A stretch of 64,000 nt of DNA from Octopus vulgaris. Taxonomy: Eukaryota. Positions 6,981-56,044 of this stretch are shown one piece after another. A program made the translations under genes and the position numbers. Position 1 is the stretch's first letter, and each line of letters begins with the position of its first letter. Where the stretch lies: the NCBI GenBank assembly GCA_951406725.2, contig OX597814.1, forward strand, positions 29,264,001 to 29,328,000. Direction: 5' to 3'. A model generated the notes under the pieces. The model made no database searches. It was not told the DNA's origin and saw only the letters and a program-made list of their open reading frames with translations.

Positions 6981-7017
6981 GGCGCAGGAGTGGCTGTGTG
7001 GTAAGTAGCTTGCTAAC
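6981..7017 (+). mobile_element. 5' portion (A-box side) of the SINE A copy split by the element array
   Basis: GGCGCAGGAGTGGCTGTGTGGTAAGTAGCTTGCTAAC; the SINE resumes at 15231. Confidence 0.9.
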
Positions 7018-8994
7018 TGCGCATGTGCGAGTCAGTGTTGTGTTTGCTACTGAAGCAGTGAAGATGTGCTTTTGAAGCCGTCTTGAATTGAAACTTTGGA
7101 AGCCCCATGTAAGGTAAGATTCTGTTTTCTGTGTCCAGTGGGAGTTTTTGTTGAGAATTATTTTTTACATGCAGGAAGTCCTACTGGATTCAGAATTCTG
7201 ATTCTGCCGACATGTGGCAGATATATTTTTCTCGCTGAGAAAATTTTGGGGGGCGTATCCGTCTTCGAATTGTGAAAATTGTATGGTGCTGTGAAGAACT
7301 ACCAATTTTACACCAATTTTTGTGGAAGTTGTGCGATCCTGGTTCGATTTAGGCCGGGAGTACCAAATGGCCAAAAGGATTTTGCTGTGTTTTTGACTTT
7401 CTTTTTAACTTTATTTGACTTTCTTTTCAACTTTATTTGACTCTCTCCGTTTTTCATTGTGACATTCTTCGGATTTCCTTTTCTTCTCGTTTTTTAGTTT
7501 TATTCTAAATACATTTATTTAAAAAAAAAAAACAAAAAAAAACATGGCAACAAAAGAAACCACCGCTTTGGAATGGGAGGTCGTCCCACCAAGCAGTGGA
7601 TTGAAAGTCTTGAGAAGAGGACGGTGGTCCTACGAACCTATTCTAGGTCGCGTGGAGCCATTGCCCTCTTCGACAAGAATACTATAGAGAAAGAGTTGGG
7701 GGACTACCTGCCAACTATAAAATTTATTTCTCGGGGGAGTAAATTTGCAACGGTCTGGTTGCTGTTTGGTACCCCCGAGGAAGCTAGCAGATTTGCTAGC
7801 GAGCCACTGGAGGGAGAGGAAATTTTGTTCCTCCCCTCGTATTGTGGCAGAAAAGTGAAAAGAGCCTGGGTGTGTGGGCTGCCCCCGGGCATGGAGGCGG
7901 AATGGATCGAAAAGACCATCCGGCGAGGCCTGGGGGATAGCGGACCCAGACTGCTGAGTGTGAAGGTGGCTCCCGCGGTCGCCTGGCAGGGGTCGAGGGC
8001 AACCTTGACCCTGTGGACACCGGTAGCCGTGGGGCAAATGAAATTCCCGGACTTCCTGAGAATGGCTGGGCACAGGTACCCGGTGATACTCGAGGGTCGC
8101 CCCCCAAGTGTCACCTGTGCCTGAAGCCCGGACATATCAGGAAGAATTGTCCCAGGGGCCGTAGTGGTGCCCCGGAGCAGAGAGGGGAAAAGGCGCCCGC
8201 CGCCCCCTCATTGGAGGGGGAGACGATGGAAGTCGTGGAGGAGGTTGCCTCCACGAAAAGAAGAGAAAGGCGAGCAACAATGGTTGCCCGCCAAAGAACG
8301 CTCAGGGGGCGAAGGGGGATAGCAATCCCCCGTGTCTGGTGACGGAGTCCCCTGGGTCAGCAGTCTCCCCCAAAAGAAGGAGGAGAAAAAGGAGAGGTCG
8401 GACGACTGACGTTTCTGTGTCGCCGACGGAGCCGCGGGTGGGATATGTGCCACCCGCGGACAAGGCTCCGCCAGTGGGAAGTGTGCCACCGACGGAGCAG
8501 TGTGAGGTCCCTCCCTGTGAAGAGGAGATGCTTCTCCTCCTCTACCACAAGGGAGAGGAGGTTGAAAGATTCTTGAATGGCTTGGGTGACCGAGAGCGTA
8601 AGGACACGGTCGGCTCAAGGAGTCCGTTATGGCCTCCGCAGGTAGCTGCGGAAAAAGTAACAGAAGATACTTTGTCAAGGGTCGCAGAGACCTTTGAAAA
8701 GAAAGACTTTACCTTTCTCTTTGCAGGCCCCGACTTGTCGTCGCAGAGTTGTCTGCAGGCGGCAAGACAATTTGCTTCGGGGACCTGACGAGAAGAATTG
8801 TTGAACATTTTTTTTGAATCATTGTTTATTAAATGTATTTATTGAAACATTGTTTTAGAGAAGCAAAAGTCGGCGGGCGCTTTCGACTTCTCCCATCACC
8901 ATCTTCATCAACCACCACCATCATCCATTAATGTCCTTGTCCAGCCCGTAGCTACTACTCTGTGTGCTGCCCTAGTGGCAAATTATTTAAAATA
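7018..8994 (+). mobile_element. ORF1-only, SINE-inserted element, unit 1 (subfamily I)
   Basis: Bounded by AAGTAGCTTGCTAAC at 7003-7017 and 8995-9009; near-identical to units 2 and 3. Confidence 0.85.
7544..8788 (+). CDS. Tx1/L1-type ORF1 (gag-like) CCHC zinc-knuckle protein, 3 single-base frameshifts
   Basis: Joined frames read MATKETTALEW...EGRPPKCHLCLKPGHIRKNC...ARQFASGT*. 1245 nt plus 3 missing homopolymer bases gives 1248 nt (415 aa). Confidence 0.75.
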
Positions 8995-9009
8995 AAGTAG
9001 CTTGCTAAC

Positions 9010-10979
9010 TGCGCATGTGCGAGTCAGTGTTGTGTTTGCTACTGAAGCAGTGAAGATGTGCTTTTGAAGCCGTCTTGAATTGAAACTTTGGAAGCCCCAT
9101 GTAAGGTAAGATTCTGTTTTCTGGGTCCAGTGGGAGTTTTTGTTGAGAATTATTTTTTACATGCAGGAAGTCCTACTGGATTCAGAATTCTGATTCTGCC
9201 GACATGTGGCAGATATATTTTTCTCGCTGAGAAAATTTTGGGGGCGTATCCGTCTTCGAATTGTGAAAATTGTATGGTGCTGTGAAGAACTACCAATTTT
9301 ACACCAATTTATGTGGAAGTTGTGCGATCCTGGTTCGATTTAGGCCGGGAGTACCAAATGGCCAAAAGGATTTTGCTGTGTTTTTGACTTTCTTTTTAAC
9401 TTTATTTGACTTTCTTTTCAACTTTATTTGACTCTCTCCGTTTTTCATTGTGACATTCTTCGGATTTCCTTTTCTTCTCGTTTTTTAGTTTTATTCTAAA
9501 TACATTTATTTAAAAAAAAAAAAAAAAAAAACATGGCAACAAAAGATACCACCGCTTTGGAATGGGAGGTCGTCCCACCCAAGCAGTGGATTGAAAGTCT
9601 TGAGAAGAGGACGGTGGTCCTACGAACCTATTCTAGGTCGCGTGGAGCCATTGCCCTCTTCGACAAGAATACTATAGAGAAAGAGTTGGGGGACTACCTG
9701 CCAACTATAAAATTTATTTCTCGGGGAGTAAATTTGCAACGGTCTGGTTGCTGTTTGGTACCCCCGAGGAAGCTAGCAGATTTGCTAGCGAGCCACTGGA
9801 GGGAGAGGAAATTTTGTTCCTCCCCTCGTATTGTGGCAGAAAAGTGAAAAGAGCCTGGGTGTGTGGGCTGCCCCCGGGCACGGAGGCGGAATGGATCGAG
9901 AAGACCATCCGGCGAGGCCTGGGGGATAGCGGACCCAGACTGCTGAGTGTGAAGGTGGCTCCCGCGGTCGCCTGGCAGGGGTCGAGGGCAACTTTGACCC
10001 TGTGGACACCGATAGCCGTGGGGGAAATGAAATTCCCGGACTTCCTGAGAATGGCTGGGCACAGGTACCCGGTGATACTCGAGGGTCGCCCCCCCAAGTG
10101 TCACCTGTGCCTGAAGCCCGGACATATCAGGAAGAATTGTCCCAGGGGCCGTAGTGGTGCCCCGGAGCAGAGAGGGAAAAGGCGCCCGCCGCCCCCTCAT
10201 TGGAGGGGGAGACGATGGAAGTCGTGGAGGAGGTTGCCTCCACGAAAAGAAAGAGAAAGGCGAGCAACAATGGTTGCCCGCCAAAGAACGCTCAGGGGGC
10301 GAAGGGGGATAGCAATCCCCCGTGTCTGGTGACGGAGTCCCCTGGGTCAGCAGTCTCCCCCAAAAGAAGGAGGAGAAAAAGGAGAGGTCGGACGACTGAC
10401 GTTTCTGTGTCGCCGACGGAGCCGCGGGTGGGATGTGTGCCACCCGCGGACAAGGCTCCGCCAGTAGGAAGTGTGCCACCGACGGAGCAGTGTGAGGTCC
10501 CTCCCTGTGAAGAGGAGATGCTTCTCCTCCTTTACCACAAGGGAGAGGAGGTTGAAAGATTCTTGAATGGCTTGGGTGACCGAGAGCGTAAGGACACGGT
10601 CGGCTCAAGGAGTCCGTTATGGCCTCCGCAGGTAGCTGCGGAAAAAGTAACAGAAGATACTTTGTCAAGGGTCGCAGAGACCTTTGAAAAGAAAGACTTT
10701 ACCTTTCTCTTTGCAGGCCCCGACTTGTCGTCGCAGAGTTGTCTGCAGGCGGCAAGACAATTTGCTTCGGGGACCTGACGAGAAGAATTGTTGAACAATT
10801 TTTGAACATTTTATTAAATGTATTTATTGAAACATTGTTTTAGAGAAGCGAAAGTCGGCGGGCGCTTTCGACTTCTCCCATCACCATCTTCATCCACCAC
10901 CACCATCATCCATTAATGTCCTTGTCCAGCCCGTAGCTACTACTCTGTGTGCTGCCCTAGTGGCAAATTATATAAAATA
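9010..10979 (+). mobile_element. ORF1-only element, unit 2 (subfamily I)
   Basis: Target 15-mer at 8995-9009 and 10980-10994. Confidence 0.85.
9533..10778 (+). CDS. ORF1-like CCHC zinc-knuckle protein, 2 single-base frameshifts
   Basis: ORFs 9533, 9748 and 10200 join; 1246 nt plus 2 missing G in G-runs gives 1248 nt. CX2CX4HX4C motif present. Confidence 0.75.
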
Positions 10980-10994
10980 AAGTAGCTTGCTAAC

Positions 10995-12974
10995 TGCGCA
11001 TGTGCGAGTCAGTGTTGTGTTTGCTACTGAAGCAGTGAAGATGTGCTTTTGAAGCCGTCTTGAATTGAAACTTTGGAAGCCCCATGTAAGGTAAGATTCT
11101 GTTTTCTGTGTCCAGTGGGAGTTTTTGTTGAGAATTATTTTTTACATGCAGGAAGTCCTACTGGATTCAGAATTCTGATTCTGCCGACATGTGGGAAATA
11201 TATTTTTCTCGCTGAGAAAATTTTGGGGGGCGTATCCGTCTTCGAATTGTGAAAATTGCATGGTGCTGTGAAGAACTACCAATTTTACACCAATTTTTGT
11301 GGAAGTTGTGCGATCCTGGTTCGATTTAGGCCGGGAGTACCAAATGGCCAAAAGGATTTTGCTGTGTTTTTGACTTTCTTTTTAACTTTATTTGACTTTC
11401 TTTTCAACTTTATTTGACTCTCTCCGTTTTTCATTGTGACATTCTTCGGATTTCCTTTTCTTCTCGTTTTTTAGTTTTATTCTAAATACATTTATTTAAA
11501 AAAAAACAAAAAAACATGGCAACAAAAGAAACCACCGCTTTGGAATGGGAGGTCGTCCCACCCAAGCAGTGGATTGAAAGTCTTGAGAAGAGGACGGTGG
11601 TCCTACGAACCTATTCTAGGTCGCGTGGAGCCATTGCCCTCTTCGACAAGAATACTATAGAGAAAGAGTTGGGGGACTACCTGCCAACTATAAAATTTAT
11701 TTCTCGGGGAGTAAATTTGCAACGGTCTGGTTGCTGTTTGGTACCCCCGAGGAAGCTAGCAGATTTGCTAGCGAGCCACTGGAGGGAGAGGAAATTTTGT
11801 TCCTCCCCTCGTATTGTGGCAGAAAAGTGAAAAGAGCCTGGGTGTGTGGGCTGCCCCCGGGCACGGAGGCGGAATGGATCGAGAAGACCATCCGGCGAGG
11901 CCTGGGGGATAGCGGACCCAGACTGCTGAGTGTGAAGGTGGCTCCCGCGGTCGCCTGGCAGGGGTCGAGGGCAACTTTGACCCTGTGGACACCGATAGCC
12001 GTGGGGGAAATGAAATTCCCGGACTTCCTGAGAATGGCTGGGCACAGGTACCCGGTGATACTCGAGGGTCGCCCCCCCAAGTGTCACCTGTGCCTGAAGC
12101 CCGGACATATCAGGAAGAATTGTCCCAGGGGCCGTAGTGGTGCCCCGGAGCAGAGAGGGGAAAAGGCGCCCGCCGCCCCCTCATTGGAGGGGGAGACGAT
12201 GGAAGTCGTGGAGGAGGTTGCCTCCACGAAAAGAAAGAGAAAGGCGAGCAACAATGGTTGCCCGCCAAAGAACGCTCAGGGGGCGAAGGGGGATAGCAAT
12301 CCCCCGTGTCTGGTGACGGAGTCCCCTGGGTCAGCAGTCTCCCCCAAAAGAAGGAGGAGAAAAAGGAGAGGTCGGACGACTGACGTTTCTGTGTCGCCGA
12401 CGGAGCCGCGGGTGGGATGTGTGCCACCCGCGGACAAGGCTCCGCCAGTAGGAAGTGTGCCACCGACGGAGCAGTGTGAGGTCCCTCCCTGTGAAGAGGA
12501 GATGCTTCTCCTCCTTTACCACAAGGGAGAGGAGGTTGAAAGATTCTTGAATGGCTTGGGTGACCGAGAGCGTAAGGACACGGTCGGCTCAAGGAGTCCG
12601 TTATGGCCTCCGCAGGTAGCTGCGGAAAAAGTAACAGAAGATACTTTGTCAAGGGTCGCAGAGACCTTTGAAAAGAAAGACTTTACCTTTCTCTTTGCAG
12701 GCCCCGACTTGTCGTCGCAGAGTTGTCTGCAGGCGGCAAGACAATTTGCTTCGGGGACCTGACGAGAAGAATTGTTGAACATTTTTATGTAATTTGAATC
12801 ATTGTTTATTAAATGTATTTATTGAAACATTGTTTTAGAGAAGCAAAAGTCGGCGGGCGCTTTCGACTTCTCCCATCACCATCTTCATCCACCACCACCA
12901 TCATCCATTAATGTCCTTGTCCAGCCCGTAGCTACTACTCTGTGTGCTGCCCTAGTGGCAAATTATATAAAATA
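10995..12974 (+). mobile_element. ORF1-only element, unit 3 (subfamily I)
   Basis: Target 15-mer at 10980-10994 and 12975-12989. Confidence 0.85.
11516..12762 (+). CDS. ORF1-like CCHC zinc-knuckle protein, 1 frameshift (G-run near 11706)
   Basis: ORFs 11516 and 11731 (343 aa) join; 1247 nt plus 1 gives 1248 nt. Confidence 0.8.
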
Positions 12975-12992
12975 AAGTAGCTTGCTAACCAG

Positions 12993-15230
12993 ACATGCGC
13001 AGTTAGTCGGTTGCTTCCTGTTGAGCTAGAGTGGACGTGAGTAACAAGCTTTGTCCAACTAAAGAAAAAAGACCAAAAACGGAAAGTTGTCGAGGTAAGT
13101 GATTTTGTTTATTGTGAGTTGGGCATAATTTATTGCGTGCCAATTATTATTTCAGTAGGTTGTGTCCAACTCTGAGACAATTTCGCCTGCGCTAGGCGGC
13201 TGCCGTTTTTGTGTTCATTGAAAAAAAAAAAAAAAAAAGAAAAAACAGTGGAGGGGCGTATCCTCAGAATTCAATACAGTTACTGTTAAAATCACCGTTG
13301 GCGGTAGCCAGTGCTGTGTTTGGATTTGTTGAATTTATTCCCTTGTCAGAGTACTTCGCAAGAAAAGTATAAAAATAAGCCACTATTGGATTACCTTTCG
13401 GACCCTTTTTGTGGAGGTTGTGTTGCAGTTGCGGTGTTCCAGGTTCAACCCAGGCCGGGAGTACCGCAAGGCCAGAATATTTTTGCTGTGTTTTTTCTGT
13501 TTATTAACTTTCTTTTGAACTTCATTTACCCCCCCCCTTTTGTTTTTTCTTTATTGCGACTTTCCGTTAATTTCTTCCCTTCTGTTGTGCTTTCTCCTTT
13601 TTGTTTTTTCAAAAATCTATCAAATTTATTTAGACTTTTGAACTTTTTTCTTCCTGCTTTTGAGTCTAATTTGAATATATTTTTAAAAAACATGGCAATG
13701 AAAAATAACAAAGTTTTGGAGTGGGAAATCATACCACCCAAAAAGTGGTTGAAGGACCGTGAAGATAGGACGGTGGTGTTGAGAACCTACTCCAAGGCAC
13801 TTGACACCATCGCCCTATTCGAAAAGACGGCAATTGAGGAGGAGTTGGAGGAGTATTTGCCAACAATTAAATTCATTTCCAGGGGTGTCAAATATGGAAC
13901 GGTGTGGTTGCTGTTTGACACCCCTGAAGAGGCTTGCAAATTTGCTAGCGAACCCTTGGAGGGTAAGGAAATCTTATTCCTGCCCACTTACAAAAAAAAG
14001 AAATTGATGAAAGCTTGGATCTGCGGACTGCCACCCGACATAGAACCCGAGTGGATAGAGGAGACTATCCGCCGGGGTCTGGGTGACAGCGAAACTAAGC
14101 TCCTCAATGTAAAAGTTCTTCCTGCGGCTGCTTGGGTTGGCTCGAAAGCAGTTTTGACCCTGTGGACCCAATCAGCCAATCTGGTTTTCCAGATTTTTTG
14201 AAAATGGCCGGGTGCAGGTACCCGGTGATGCTTGAGGGTCGCCCCCCTAAGTGTCATCGGTGCTTGGAGTCCGGCCACATAAAGAAGAACTGTCCTCGGG
14301 AACAAAATAGGATCCCGGAACAGTTACGTAAAACCCCTCTAGAAGAGGGAACGATAACGGCCGAGAAAGCAGAGGACTCCTCAAGCAGAGGCCGAAAGAG
14401 GAAGGTGAGCAACAATGGGTGCTCACCAAAGGATAATAGGGATGAGGAGAGGAGGGCGAATCTTCCAGCCACGGAGGAGACGCACCCTCCCTCAGTTGAA
14501 AAGGAAAAAAAAAGAAAAAGAGGAAGAAAAACGGGACGTTGCCGGCTGTCAGTGTGGCACCGGAATGTCGCGGAACTACGTCGGTTGGGGTTGTGCCACC
14601 GACAAGAGAAGGAATACCGTTGGCGGAAACTGTGCCGCCAACGAAAGAACTGAATGTATTGGTCCTCTTCTATAGAGGAGGAGAAATTGAAAAAGTGATG
14701 GAAGAGCACTACAAGGGAGCACCTTTAGCCTTCACACAGGACCCCGAATGGCCTCCGCAGGTAGCTGTGGAGGCCGTGGCGTTCGACGTGACGCTAGGGC
14801 TAAAGGAGCTCAATGAAGACTATAACTTGGTCCCGGGCGACGCGAACTCGGAACTTGACTACGTTCTGAGGGAGGCGTGGTTGATGGTGGAGGGCGCGGG
14901 CACAAGCTATTTCGAGGACGATATGTATTATTAGTAATGGACTTAAGTCCAAAAATTGAAAAATTGTAAGAGGATTAATACCTCGTTTTGTATTAATAAT
15001 GGACTGCTAAGCCCAAAATTGGAAAAATTGTAAGAGGTTTAATACCTCGTTTTGTGTTAATCTTTTTAAAAAGAACAATGTTTTAGAGAAGCAAAAGTCG
15101 GCGGGCGCTTTCTGTCTTCTCCCATCCTTATCATCTTTCTTTCATTATCATTCACCTCATTAATGTCCTCGTCCAGCCCGCAAAGCTAACTTAATCTGTG
15201 TACTGCCTTTATGGCAAATGTTTTGAAATA
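12993..15230 (+). mobile_element. ORF1-only element, unit 4 (divergent subfamily II)
   Basis: Flanked by AAGTAGCTTGCTAACCAG (12975-12992) and AAGTAGCTTGCTTACCAG (15231-15248); ORF and UTR blocks homologous to units 1-3. Confidence 0.85.
13692..14934 (+). CDS. Paralogous ORF1-like CCHC zinc-knuckle protein, 2 frameshifts (~414 aa)
   Basis: MAMKNNKVLEWEIIPPKKW...RTVVLRTYS...EGRPPKCHRCLESGHIKKNC...WPPQVAVEAV, collinear with units 1-3. Confidence 0.75.
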
Positions 15231-15371
15231 AAGTAGCTTGCTTACCAGCCACATGGTTCCGGGTTCAGTTCCACTGCGTGGCATCTTGGGCAAGTGTCTT
15301 CTGCTATAGCCCCGGGCCAACCTATGCTTTGTGAGTGGATTTGGTAGACGGAAACTGAAAGAAGCCTGTCG

Positions 15372-15408
<37 letters not shown>

Positions 15409-15618
15409 ATGTGTTTGTGTGTCTGTGTTTGTCCCCCTAGCATTGCTTGACAACCGATGCTGGTGTGTTTACGTCCCCGTCACTTAGCGGTTCGGCGAAA
15501 GAGACCGATAGAATAAGTACTGGGCTTACAAAGAATAAGTCCCGGGGTTGAGTTGCTCGACTAAAAAGGCGGTGCTCCAGCATGGCCGCAGTCAAATGAC
15601 TGAAACAAGTAAAAGAGT
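15231..15618 (+). mobile_element. 3' portion of the split SINE A (B-box, body, tail)
   Basis: Continues the head sequence from 7003 onward and ends GACTGAAACAAGTAAAAGAG. Confidence 0.9.
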
Positions 15619-55349: not shown

Positions 55350-56044
55350 CTCGTAGGATGAGTTTCTGGATCTTAAGAACCTTCCGGTCCAGAGAACAAG
55401 GTGTTATCATACCACTTTTCTCCTCCCTTGTACGGCCACACCTTGAATACTGCTGCCCACTGTGGTCTCCCCATACAAAACAAAACATCTCGAGGATTGA
55501 ATCACCCCAGAGGGCACTCACTAAACGAATTGAAGGCATGGCTGCACTCGATTATTGGGACCGCCTTAAAGCCTTGAAACTCTACACTCTCCAGCGCCGC
55601 CATGAGCAGTACATCATTTGTACGATGTGGAGAATATACCGCCAACTTTGCCCAAACGACCTGAACATTAGTTTCAAGGTTCATCCAAGACTGGGACCAC
55701 GGGCCATACGTCCCCTGCCCAATTCAAGATCACACCATATATGTACACTGCAACATAATTTCTTTTCCTCAGCAAGCCCTGCCCTATTTAACATTGTCCC
55801 GAAAGAGATCAAAGAGGAAAAGGATCCCATCAACTTTAAACGGAGTCTGGATAGATTCCTTCAAGGAATACCAGATAAGCCACCCATAATTGGATATAAC
55901 TCACCCAACAAAAACTCACTACTTGAATGGACCATAAACAAAACTTGACTTAAACAGGATTTAGATAATCCTCTCAGGTGGTGCTATTAAGTTAGACATG
56001 GCCTGGACCAATCTTTGGTCGAAACACATATAAGTTTTATATAA

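Follow-up and report, generated by a model that had tools for sequence, protein, structure and literature searches.

The window analysed here is a 64,000-nucleotide stretch of the Octopus vulgaris genome (contig OX597814.1). Four head-to-tail units span positions 7015–15230 of its forward strand, three of family A (unit 1, 7015–8994; unit 2, 9007–10979; unit 3, 10992–12974) and one of family B (unit 4, 12987–15230). The units are separated by a 12-nt target-site repeat (7003–7014, with further copies at 8995–9006, 10980–10991, 12975–12986 and 15231–15242), and the array sits in the head of an abundant SINE. The A-box-like part of the SINE 5′ head occupies 6981–7002, and the rest of the interrupted SINE extends over 15243–15600 (end approximate). 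We take this SINE to be of the tRNA type; an Rfam search of its head returned no tRNA match.

Units of the A and B type are ORF1-only elements, 1.5–2.3 kb long, with a single ORF of ~410 aa that contains a zf-CCHC domain (scoring below the Pfam cut-off in family A) and no reverse transcriptase (RT). In unit 1, ORF1 with its zinc-knuckle motif spans 7544–8788 and is frameshifted; it is open, at 414 aa, in L094. The ORF region of unit 4 spans 13692–14934. Between 7544 and 14934 all four units are frameshifted, often at homopolymer runs, with open copies found elsewhere, and some of these frameshifts may be assembly errors. A 3′-terminal stem-loop with a 4-bp stem lies at 8968–8980 of unit 1 and recurs at 10953, 12948 and 15204. 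The A and B units end in AATAAA overlapping the target repeat and lack a poly(A) tail (none is present at 8990–8995 or 15226–15231), so that a transcript would extend into target sequence; mammalian L1 derivatives end in a poly(A) tail. Elsewhere in the window, a 196-aa ORF at 55358–55948 matches neither Pfam nor the autonomous partner of the units described below and may be the tail of another retroelement.

Element families and their autonomous partner

Dispersed copies of these elements are numerous in the 2.8-Gb genome, and their 5′ ends are 89–100% identical. Of the 90 5′ ends scored, 89 adjoin the SINE site or another unit, and the 90th (L103) was placed at the SINE head by reading. The identical SINE site is also occupied by a 5.4-kb autonomous LINE with ORF1 and ORF2. 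The ORF2 of this partner contains Exo_endo_phos, RVT_1 and zf-RVT domains, all above the Pfam cut-off, and matches human L1 ORF2p with an E value of 5e-48 and R2 with one of 5e-20. The nearest of its named relatives comes from Argonauta hians, at 62% identity. The partner ORF1 is 27% identical to the family A ORF1 over 241 aa (E 2e-22), and no relative of ORF1 with a solved structure was found. The autonomous partner likely belongs to the Tx1 type, and none of the homologues that it matched carries the label Tx1.

The 3′-terminal stem-loop is common to the units and the autonomous LINE. Its 4-bp stem is found in 26 of 28 distinct 3′ ends, with two-sided change in seven; one of the remaining ends has a mismatch and the other lacks the stem motif. 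Six shortened units were found between target repeats. Long terminal repeats are absent from the units, and the partner ORF2 is of the APE type rather than GIY-YIG. We infer that the units are mobilised through target-primed reverse transcription in trans, which makes RNA the template. The first-pass annotation had offered, as one of two possibilities, that the element does not move through a processed RNA. Movement as DNA, by site-specific recombination or local duplication, with an ordinary intron that is never lost, would suit the many full-length copies, the lack of a poly(A) tail and the head-to-tail arrays. Yet endonuclease, RT and zf-RVT domains are found in the LINE that shares the site, its ORF1 protein is a homologue of that of the units, some copies are truncated and lie between target duplications, the 3′ stem pairs and covaries across ends, and families are mixed within arrays. 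We regard this possibility as highly improbable.

At 80% clustering, at least 28 distinct 5′ ends occur at the one SINE-head site (window 7003–15242; L091–L098, L162–L201), and arrays there mix autonomous and ORF1-only units head to tail. Two units are mosaic: one combines an A-type 5′ end with a B-type ORF (L093, minus strand, unit at 2319) and the other an E-type 5′ end with an A-type ORF (L165, minus strand, unit at 834), so that 5′ modules appear to be exchanged among families. ORF1-only families with 5′ UTRs of ~110 nt and no early splice donor are represented by L092, L094, L096, L097 and L186; the L094 ORF1 stands at 39% to the autonomous ORF1 versus 28% to family A, which suggests a separate origin. 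Part of the 5′ UTR of the unit at 840 in L164 looks inverted, by eye, relative to L188, L189 and L200. At four of nine paired junctions (L014/L082, L040/L087, L052/L077 and L048/L063), the 5′ copy of the target repeat is unlike the 3′ copy and shows the usual form of the element; the element RNA may thus carry the first few 'target' bases.

The 61-nt segment and its splice-like signals

The first-pass annotation had pointed to intron-like GT..AG segments of 61 nt in the 5′ UTRs of both subfamilies, and these are indeed present, at 7114–7174 in unit 1 (9106–9166 in unit 2 and 11091–11151 in unit 3) and at 13095–13155 in family B. Both are exactly 61 nt long with GT..CAG ends and start 100 nt (A) and 109 nt (B) into the units, in agreement with the position of about 100 nt from the 5′ end given earlier. 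A GT donor, a YAG acceptor and an upstream pyrimidine tract are present in each, and wherever the acceptor was read (30 copies of family A and 30 of family B), the CAG lies at 61 nt without exception. The interiors, previously described as different, are not identical, but neither are they unrelated: the two match at 43 of 61 positions with gaps, compared with 30/61 and 33/61 in the flanks. Because the interiors align better than the flanks, the equal length results at least partly from common descent. Shuffling the first 140 nt produces an equally good donor in 7.5% and 12.5% of cases, and the single A/B pair is weak evidence against chance.

The donor was surveyed across units from loci at tandem junctions, of which 66 were clustered into 28 groups at 80% and 17 were left out by hand as SINE continuations or truncated or short pieces. 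Scoring was out of 9, within the first 140 nt, against the donor consensus. A donor of at least 7 of 9 was found in 21 of the 28 clusters, where shuffles lead one to expect 8.4 and the reverse strand has 3, with the clusters related rather than independent; for at least 8 of 9 the corresponding figures are 9, 1.3 and 1. Sixteen clusters are visibly related around the segment, and 14 of them have an intact donor. In an alignment of 15 rows, which keeps L172 (a single copy with a donor point change) and omits L175 (degraded donor), the AG|GTA.G columns are invariant or identical in 14 of 15 rows. The splice-donor-type 9-mer, located at 7111–7119 in unit 1, is kept across families: GTGAGT, found in 7 of 78 family B copies, is still a donor form, and GTAAGA is present in 30 of 30 autonomous copies (a sample chosen for GT). 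The donor is nevertheless not required, as the short-UTR groups L092 and L186, in whose first 140 nt no donor was found (UTRs of ~110 nt), have spread without it.

Conservation of the splice signals in further subfamilies, the absence of which was to count against an intron, holds for the donor and fails for the acceptor. Under an ad hoc rule that takes the first AG after the T-tract, 14 clusters have YAG (7), AAG (4) or GAG (3), with the AG at 54–70 nt in 12 of them, and the acceptor AG falls in no conserved column of the 15-row alignment. At the matching position the autonomous family has CGG in 27 of 30 copies and CAG in one (two were unscored), and its next AG comes only at 132 nt. An 86-nt intron in this family was rejected, its AG being a minority variant. 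Immediately ahead of the ORF1 start, both families have another long pyrimidine tract that contains no AG and ends in TAG (7380–7498 in A, about 13477–13633 in B). Longer introns that would link the donor with tracts of this kind close to the ATG were considered and dropped: no contig has such a joint, and next-base scans found no such genomic copy, barring next exons that open with the segment's own letters.

Genomic copies precisely lacking the 61 nt, which the first-pass annotation had suggested looking for, were sought by scanning for the exact motif at the end of exon 1 and reading the next bases, a procedure that misses diverged copies. In family A, the motif is followed by GT in 59 copies and by another base in three, all three being point mutants that keep the segment. 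In family B, all 139 matches are followed by G and none by another base. Because an alternative acceptor 3 nt downstream would likewise yield G, 100 of the 139 were read individually, in sets of 78 (76 whole, 2 deleted) and 22 (all whole), giving 98 copies with the segment whole and two with non-splice deletions. The motif of the autonomous family is followed by GT in 89 copies and by another base in none. These exact-motif scans thus yielded no precisely spliced copy among 62 of family A, 100 read of family B (139 matched) and 89 of the autonomous family, which bears out the suggestion that the mobile template is unspliced. The two deleted B copies, L236 and L257, have their deletions inside the hairpin described below. 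L236 loses 61 nt, offset by 12 nt from the splice positions, and keeps the donor; its deletion possibly reflects RT skipping across the stem. Internally deleted copies were dismissed as splicing products, since neither of the two junctions checked is GT..AG.

Assembled contigs from seven runs presumed to be RNA, drawn from four studies, contain no splice joint at the A or B segment or at the autonomous donor. In X1 (A and B) and X6 (B), unspliced contigs extend over both sites; in X5 and X12 (B) and in X4 (autonomous), they extend over the donor. This evidence is weak, because rare forms drop out of assembled contigs and the contigs are possibly DNA, host-intron or read-through RNA. The X12 contig ends one base short of the B acceptor G. 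In run X1 the autonomous element is mostly uncovered and the B contig has letters absent from 39–69 sampled copies, a pattern that hints at RNA from one locus.

These data bear on the proposal of the first-pass annotation that a spliced form serves as the mRNA. The segment might be a true short intron, spliced in mRNA at an unsampled stage, with only the unspliced RNA retrotransposed and the hairpin setting the ratio of the two. Its canonical ends and T-tract in every A and B copy read at the acceptor fit such an intron, as do the narrow range of AG positions in most clusters and the report that Penelope-like elements keep spliceosomal introns (PMC4209133), and the contradicting RNA evidence is weak. 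Spliced and unspliced forms would, however, share the 3′ stem-loop, yet the ~250 copies read or typed include none that is spliced, whereas spliced insertions make up ~2% in human L1 according to the account in PMC5860796. The contigs of the seven presumed-RNA runs contain no joint, the acceptor is variable and is spanned by a covarying hairpin, and a clear translational gain is absent: of the upstream ATGs, none in B and one of seven in A would be lost by splicing. We consider a spliced mRNA unlikely, while giving it some weight.

A predicted hairpin across the acceptor

Folding predicts that the interior of the segment pairs with a stretch of ~25 nt immediately past the AG (z −5.7 for family A, −3.1 for family B), with 22 (A) and 32 (B) predicted pairs crossing the acceptor. 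In unit 1 the predicted hairpin spans 7121–7201, its 5′ arm within the segment and its 3′ arm over and past the AG, and the AG itself (7173–7174) is predicted to pair with 7149–7148. In unit 4 a predicted 20-bp stem (13116–13172, formed by 13116–13135 with 13153–13172) takes in the acceptor CAG. The acceptor AG is predicted to be paired with P ≥ 0.99 in both families. Each of the 15 related clusters is predicted to form the hairpin, at z values between −2.2 and −6.8; it contains 5–13 G-U pairs, its energies are weaker when the reverse strand is folded, and the G-U/G-C exchange in the stem fits a sense-strand RNA. In the autonomous family, folding shows no hairpin of the A/B type, although the donor is present.

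Control windows fold comparably: 13 of 30 other windows of units A and B reach z ≤ −2.2, and 34% of 44 control YAGs are likewise paired at >0.9. The case for the stem is therefore made by its kept position and its covariation, not by its energy. Covariation was assessed on 12 rows, leaving out three rows with a duplicated insert. In these, 84% of stem cells pair, versus 77.3 ± 1.9% when shuffled (0/500), a test that ignores relatedness and is thereby inflated, and 36–58% when the arms are slid; two-sided change occurs in 6 of 12 stem pairs. Pairing of each family with its own arm gives −26.6 (A) and −28.4 (B) kcal/mol, compared with −14.6 and −10.3 crosswise; the cognate arm outranks every other partner in just 5 of 15 clusters. 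As splicing would delete the 5′ arm, a conserved stem is possible only in unspliced RNA.

The donor is predicted to be partly paired (mean P 0.43–1.0), and in these modelled folds such pairing could hinder U1. Three further candidates were rejected: a conserved helix between the donor and a downstream partner, for which covariation is weak (8/15, permutation p 0.016); a mirtron, as the stem is not delimited by splice sites; and a known RNA family, such as a ribozyme, at the 5′ end, where Rfam matches are at chance level.

The partial pairing of the donor-like motif in predicted folds, together with its travelling along with swapped 5′ modules, would also fit a motif that acts in the DNA as a promoter element or belongs to an RNA structure serving some other purpose (packaging, translation or 5′ completion of insertion), its likeness to a splice site being incidental. 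The same reading is given for the L1 donor, with a RUNX3 site over it, in PMC5860796. On the other hand, the variants GTAAG, GTAGG and GTGAG stay within the donor consensus, even where a 5′ end cannot be aligned to A or B, and the excess of donors is confined to the sense strand (21/28 versus 3/28 clusters). An incidental likeness is, in our judgement, rather improbable.

A probable retained signal and its relation to known systems

The segment is likely a retained signal that would aid the output of element RNA, not a removed intron. LINE-type elements need Pol II transcription yet must remain unspliced. The explanation towards which we lean, with slightly more confidence than doubt, is that selection for U1 binding, close to where the Pol II transcript begins, keeps the donor, while the stem hides the acceptor and so preserves a full-length mRNA and template. 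The putative role of U1 is suggested by the sense-strand excess of donors, by the fact that its variants do not leave the donor consensus, and by the analogy of a reporter system (PMC12211998). Under this explanation, Pol II would start at or near the 5′ end of the element, and U1 snRNP bound to the donor ~100 nt into the RNA would shield the young transcript from early termination. The hairpin would form during transcription and mask the AG, making splicing rare. The full-length RNA would then be translated into ORF1p and also reverse-transcribed in trans by the ORF2p of the partner; this protein would find its template by the 3′ stem-loop and cut the SINE head. More tentatively, we entertain the fuller idea, in which our doubts outweigh our confidence, of a two-part 'splice decoy', in which a strong donor would license transcription by recruiting U1, and a covarying hairpin would hide the acceptor and so keep the full-length RNA whole as template; the module would be exchanged among the ORF1-only families, themselves parasites of a LINE that targets a SINE.

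In the reporter system of PMC12211998, a sense promoter-proximal 5′ splice site protects from Restrictor and raises RNA at <1% splicing, and loss of the 3′ site lessens this protection somewhat. That case is a reporter screen and concerns neither a retrotransposon nor octopus. Retention of an intron in genomic copies has a counterpart in Penelope-like elements, in which, according to PMC4209133, copies keep the intron and, in D. virilis, the intron end meets RNA structure. The octopus retroelement copies keep their intron-like segment in the same way; unlike them, Penelope-like elements have a GIY-YIG domain and a telomerase-like RT, and both spliced and unspliced forms are described.

Like HAL1 (PMC5753468), the octopus units are non-autonomous, ORF1-only and related to an L1-group LINE. 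They differ from HAL1 in being strictly site-specific, in lacking poly(A), in sharing a 3′ stem-loop with the LINE, and in their mixed tandem arrays and many 5′ ends. Target-specific LINEs of the Tx1 clade include, according to PMC4494074, Tx1L in Tx1D, Keno, Kibi, Koshi and Tx1-Mar with SINEU. The octopus system resembles these in that an APE-type LINE uses one site in a repeat, tandem insertions share the target duplication and non-autonomous riders are present; it differs in having a SINE head as its target and riders that encode a protein, and its membership of the Tx1 clade is a likely one. Our literature searches returned no report of the octopus element or of a donor-hairpin module, and none of a LINE targeting a SINE head with many ORF1-only riders in mixed arrays. 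In the available portions of two papers on octopus repeats (PMC8967140 and PMC13282606), L1-Tx1 is named only as a class; the accessible text of the latter (2026) contains none of the terms intron, splic, target or nested, and supplements or Repbase may hold these families.

The closest parallel is the human L1 donor G98U99, which PMC5860796 describes as conserved and mostly unspliced, with acceptors 500–900 nt from the donor and spliced integrated retrotransposed elements (SpIREs) amounting to ~2% of full-length insertions. Its authors suggest, as a guess, that RNA structure may sequester the donor, and account only in part for why L1 keeps a donor that it seldom uses. The octopus donor is likewise conserved and belongs to an L1-group element, in whose 5′ UTR it comes after ~100 nt. 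Unlike in L1, the AG is ~60 nt away and enclosed by a covarying stem, and not one spliced copy was found. The ~15 diverged natural versions that combine a conserved donor with a covarying stem make the idea of structure put forward for L1 directly testable. Set against the L1 donor as that paper presents it, a conserved but unspliced donor is thus of a known kind, and what is new in the octopus elements is the nearby AG inside a covarying stem.
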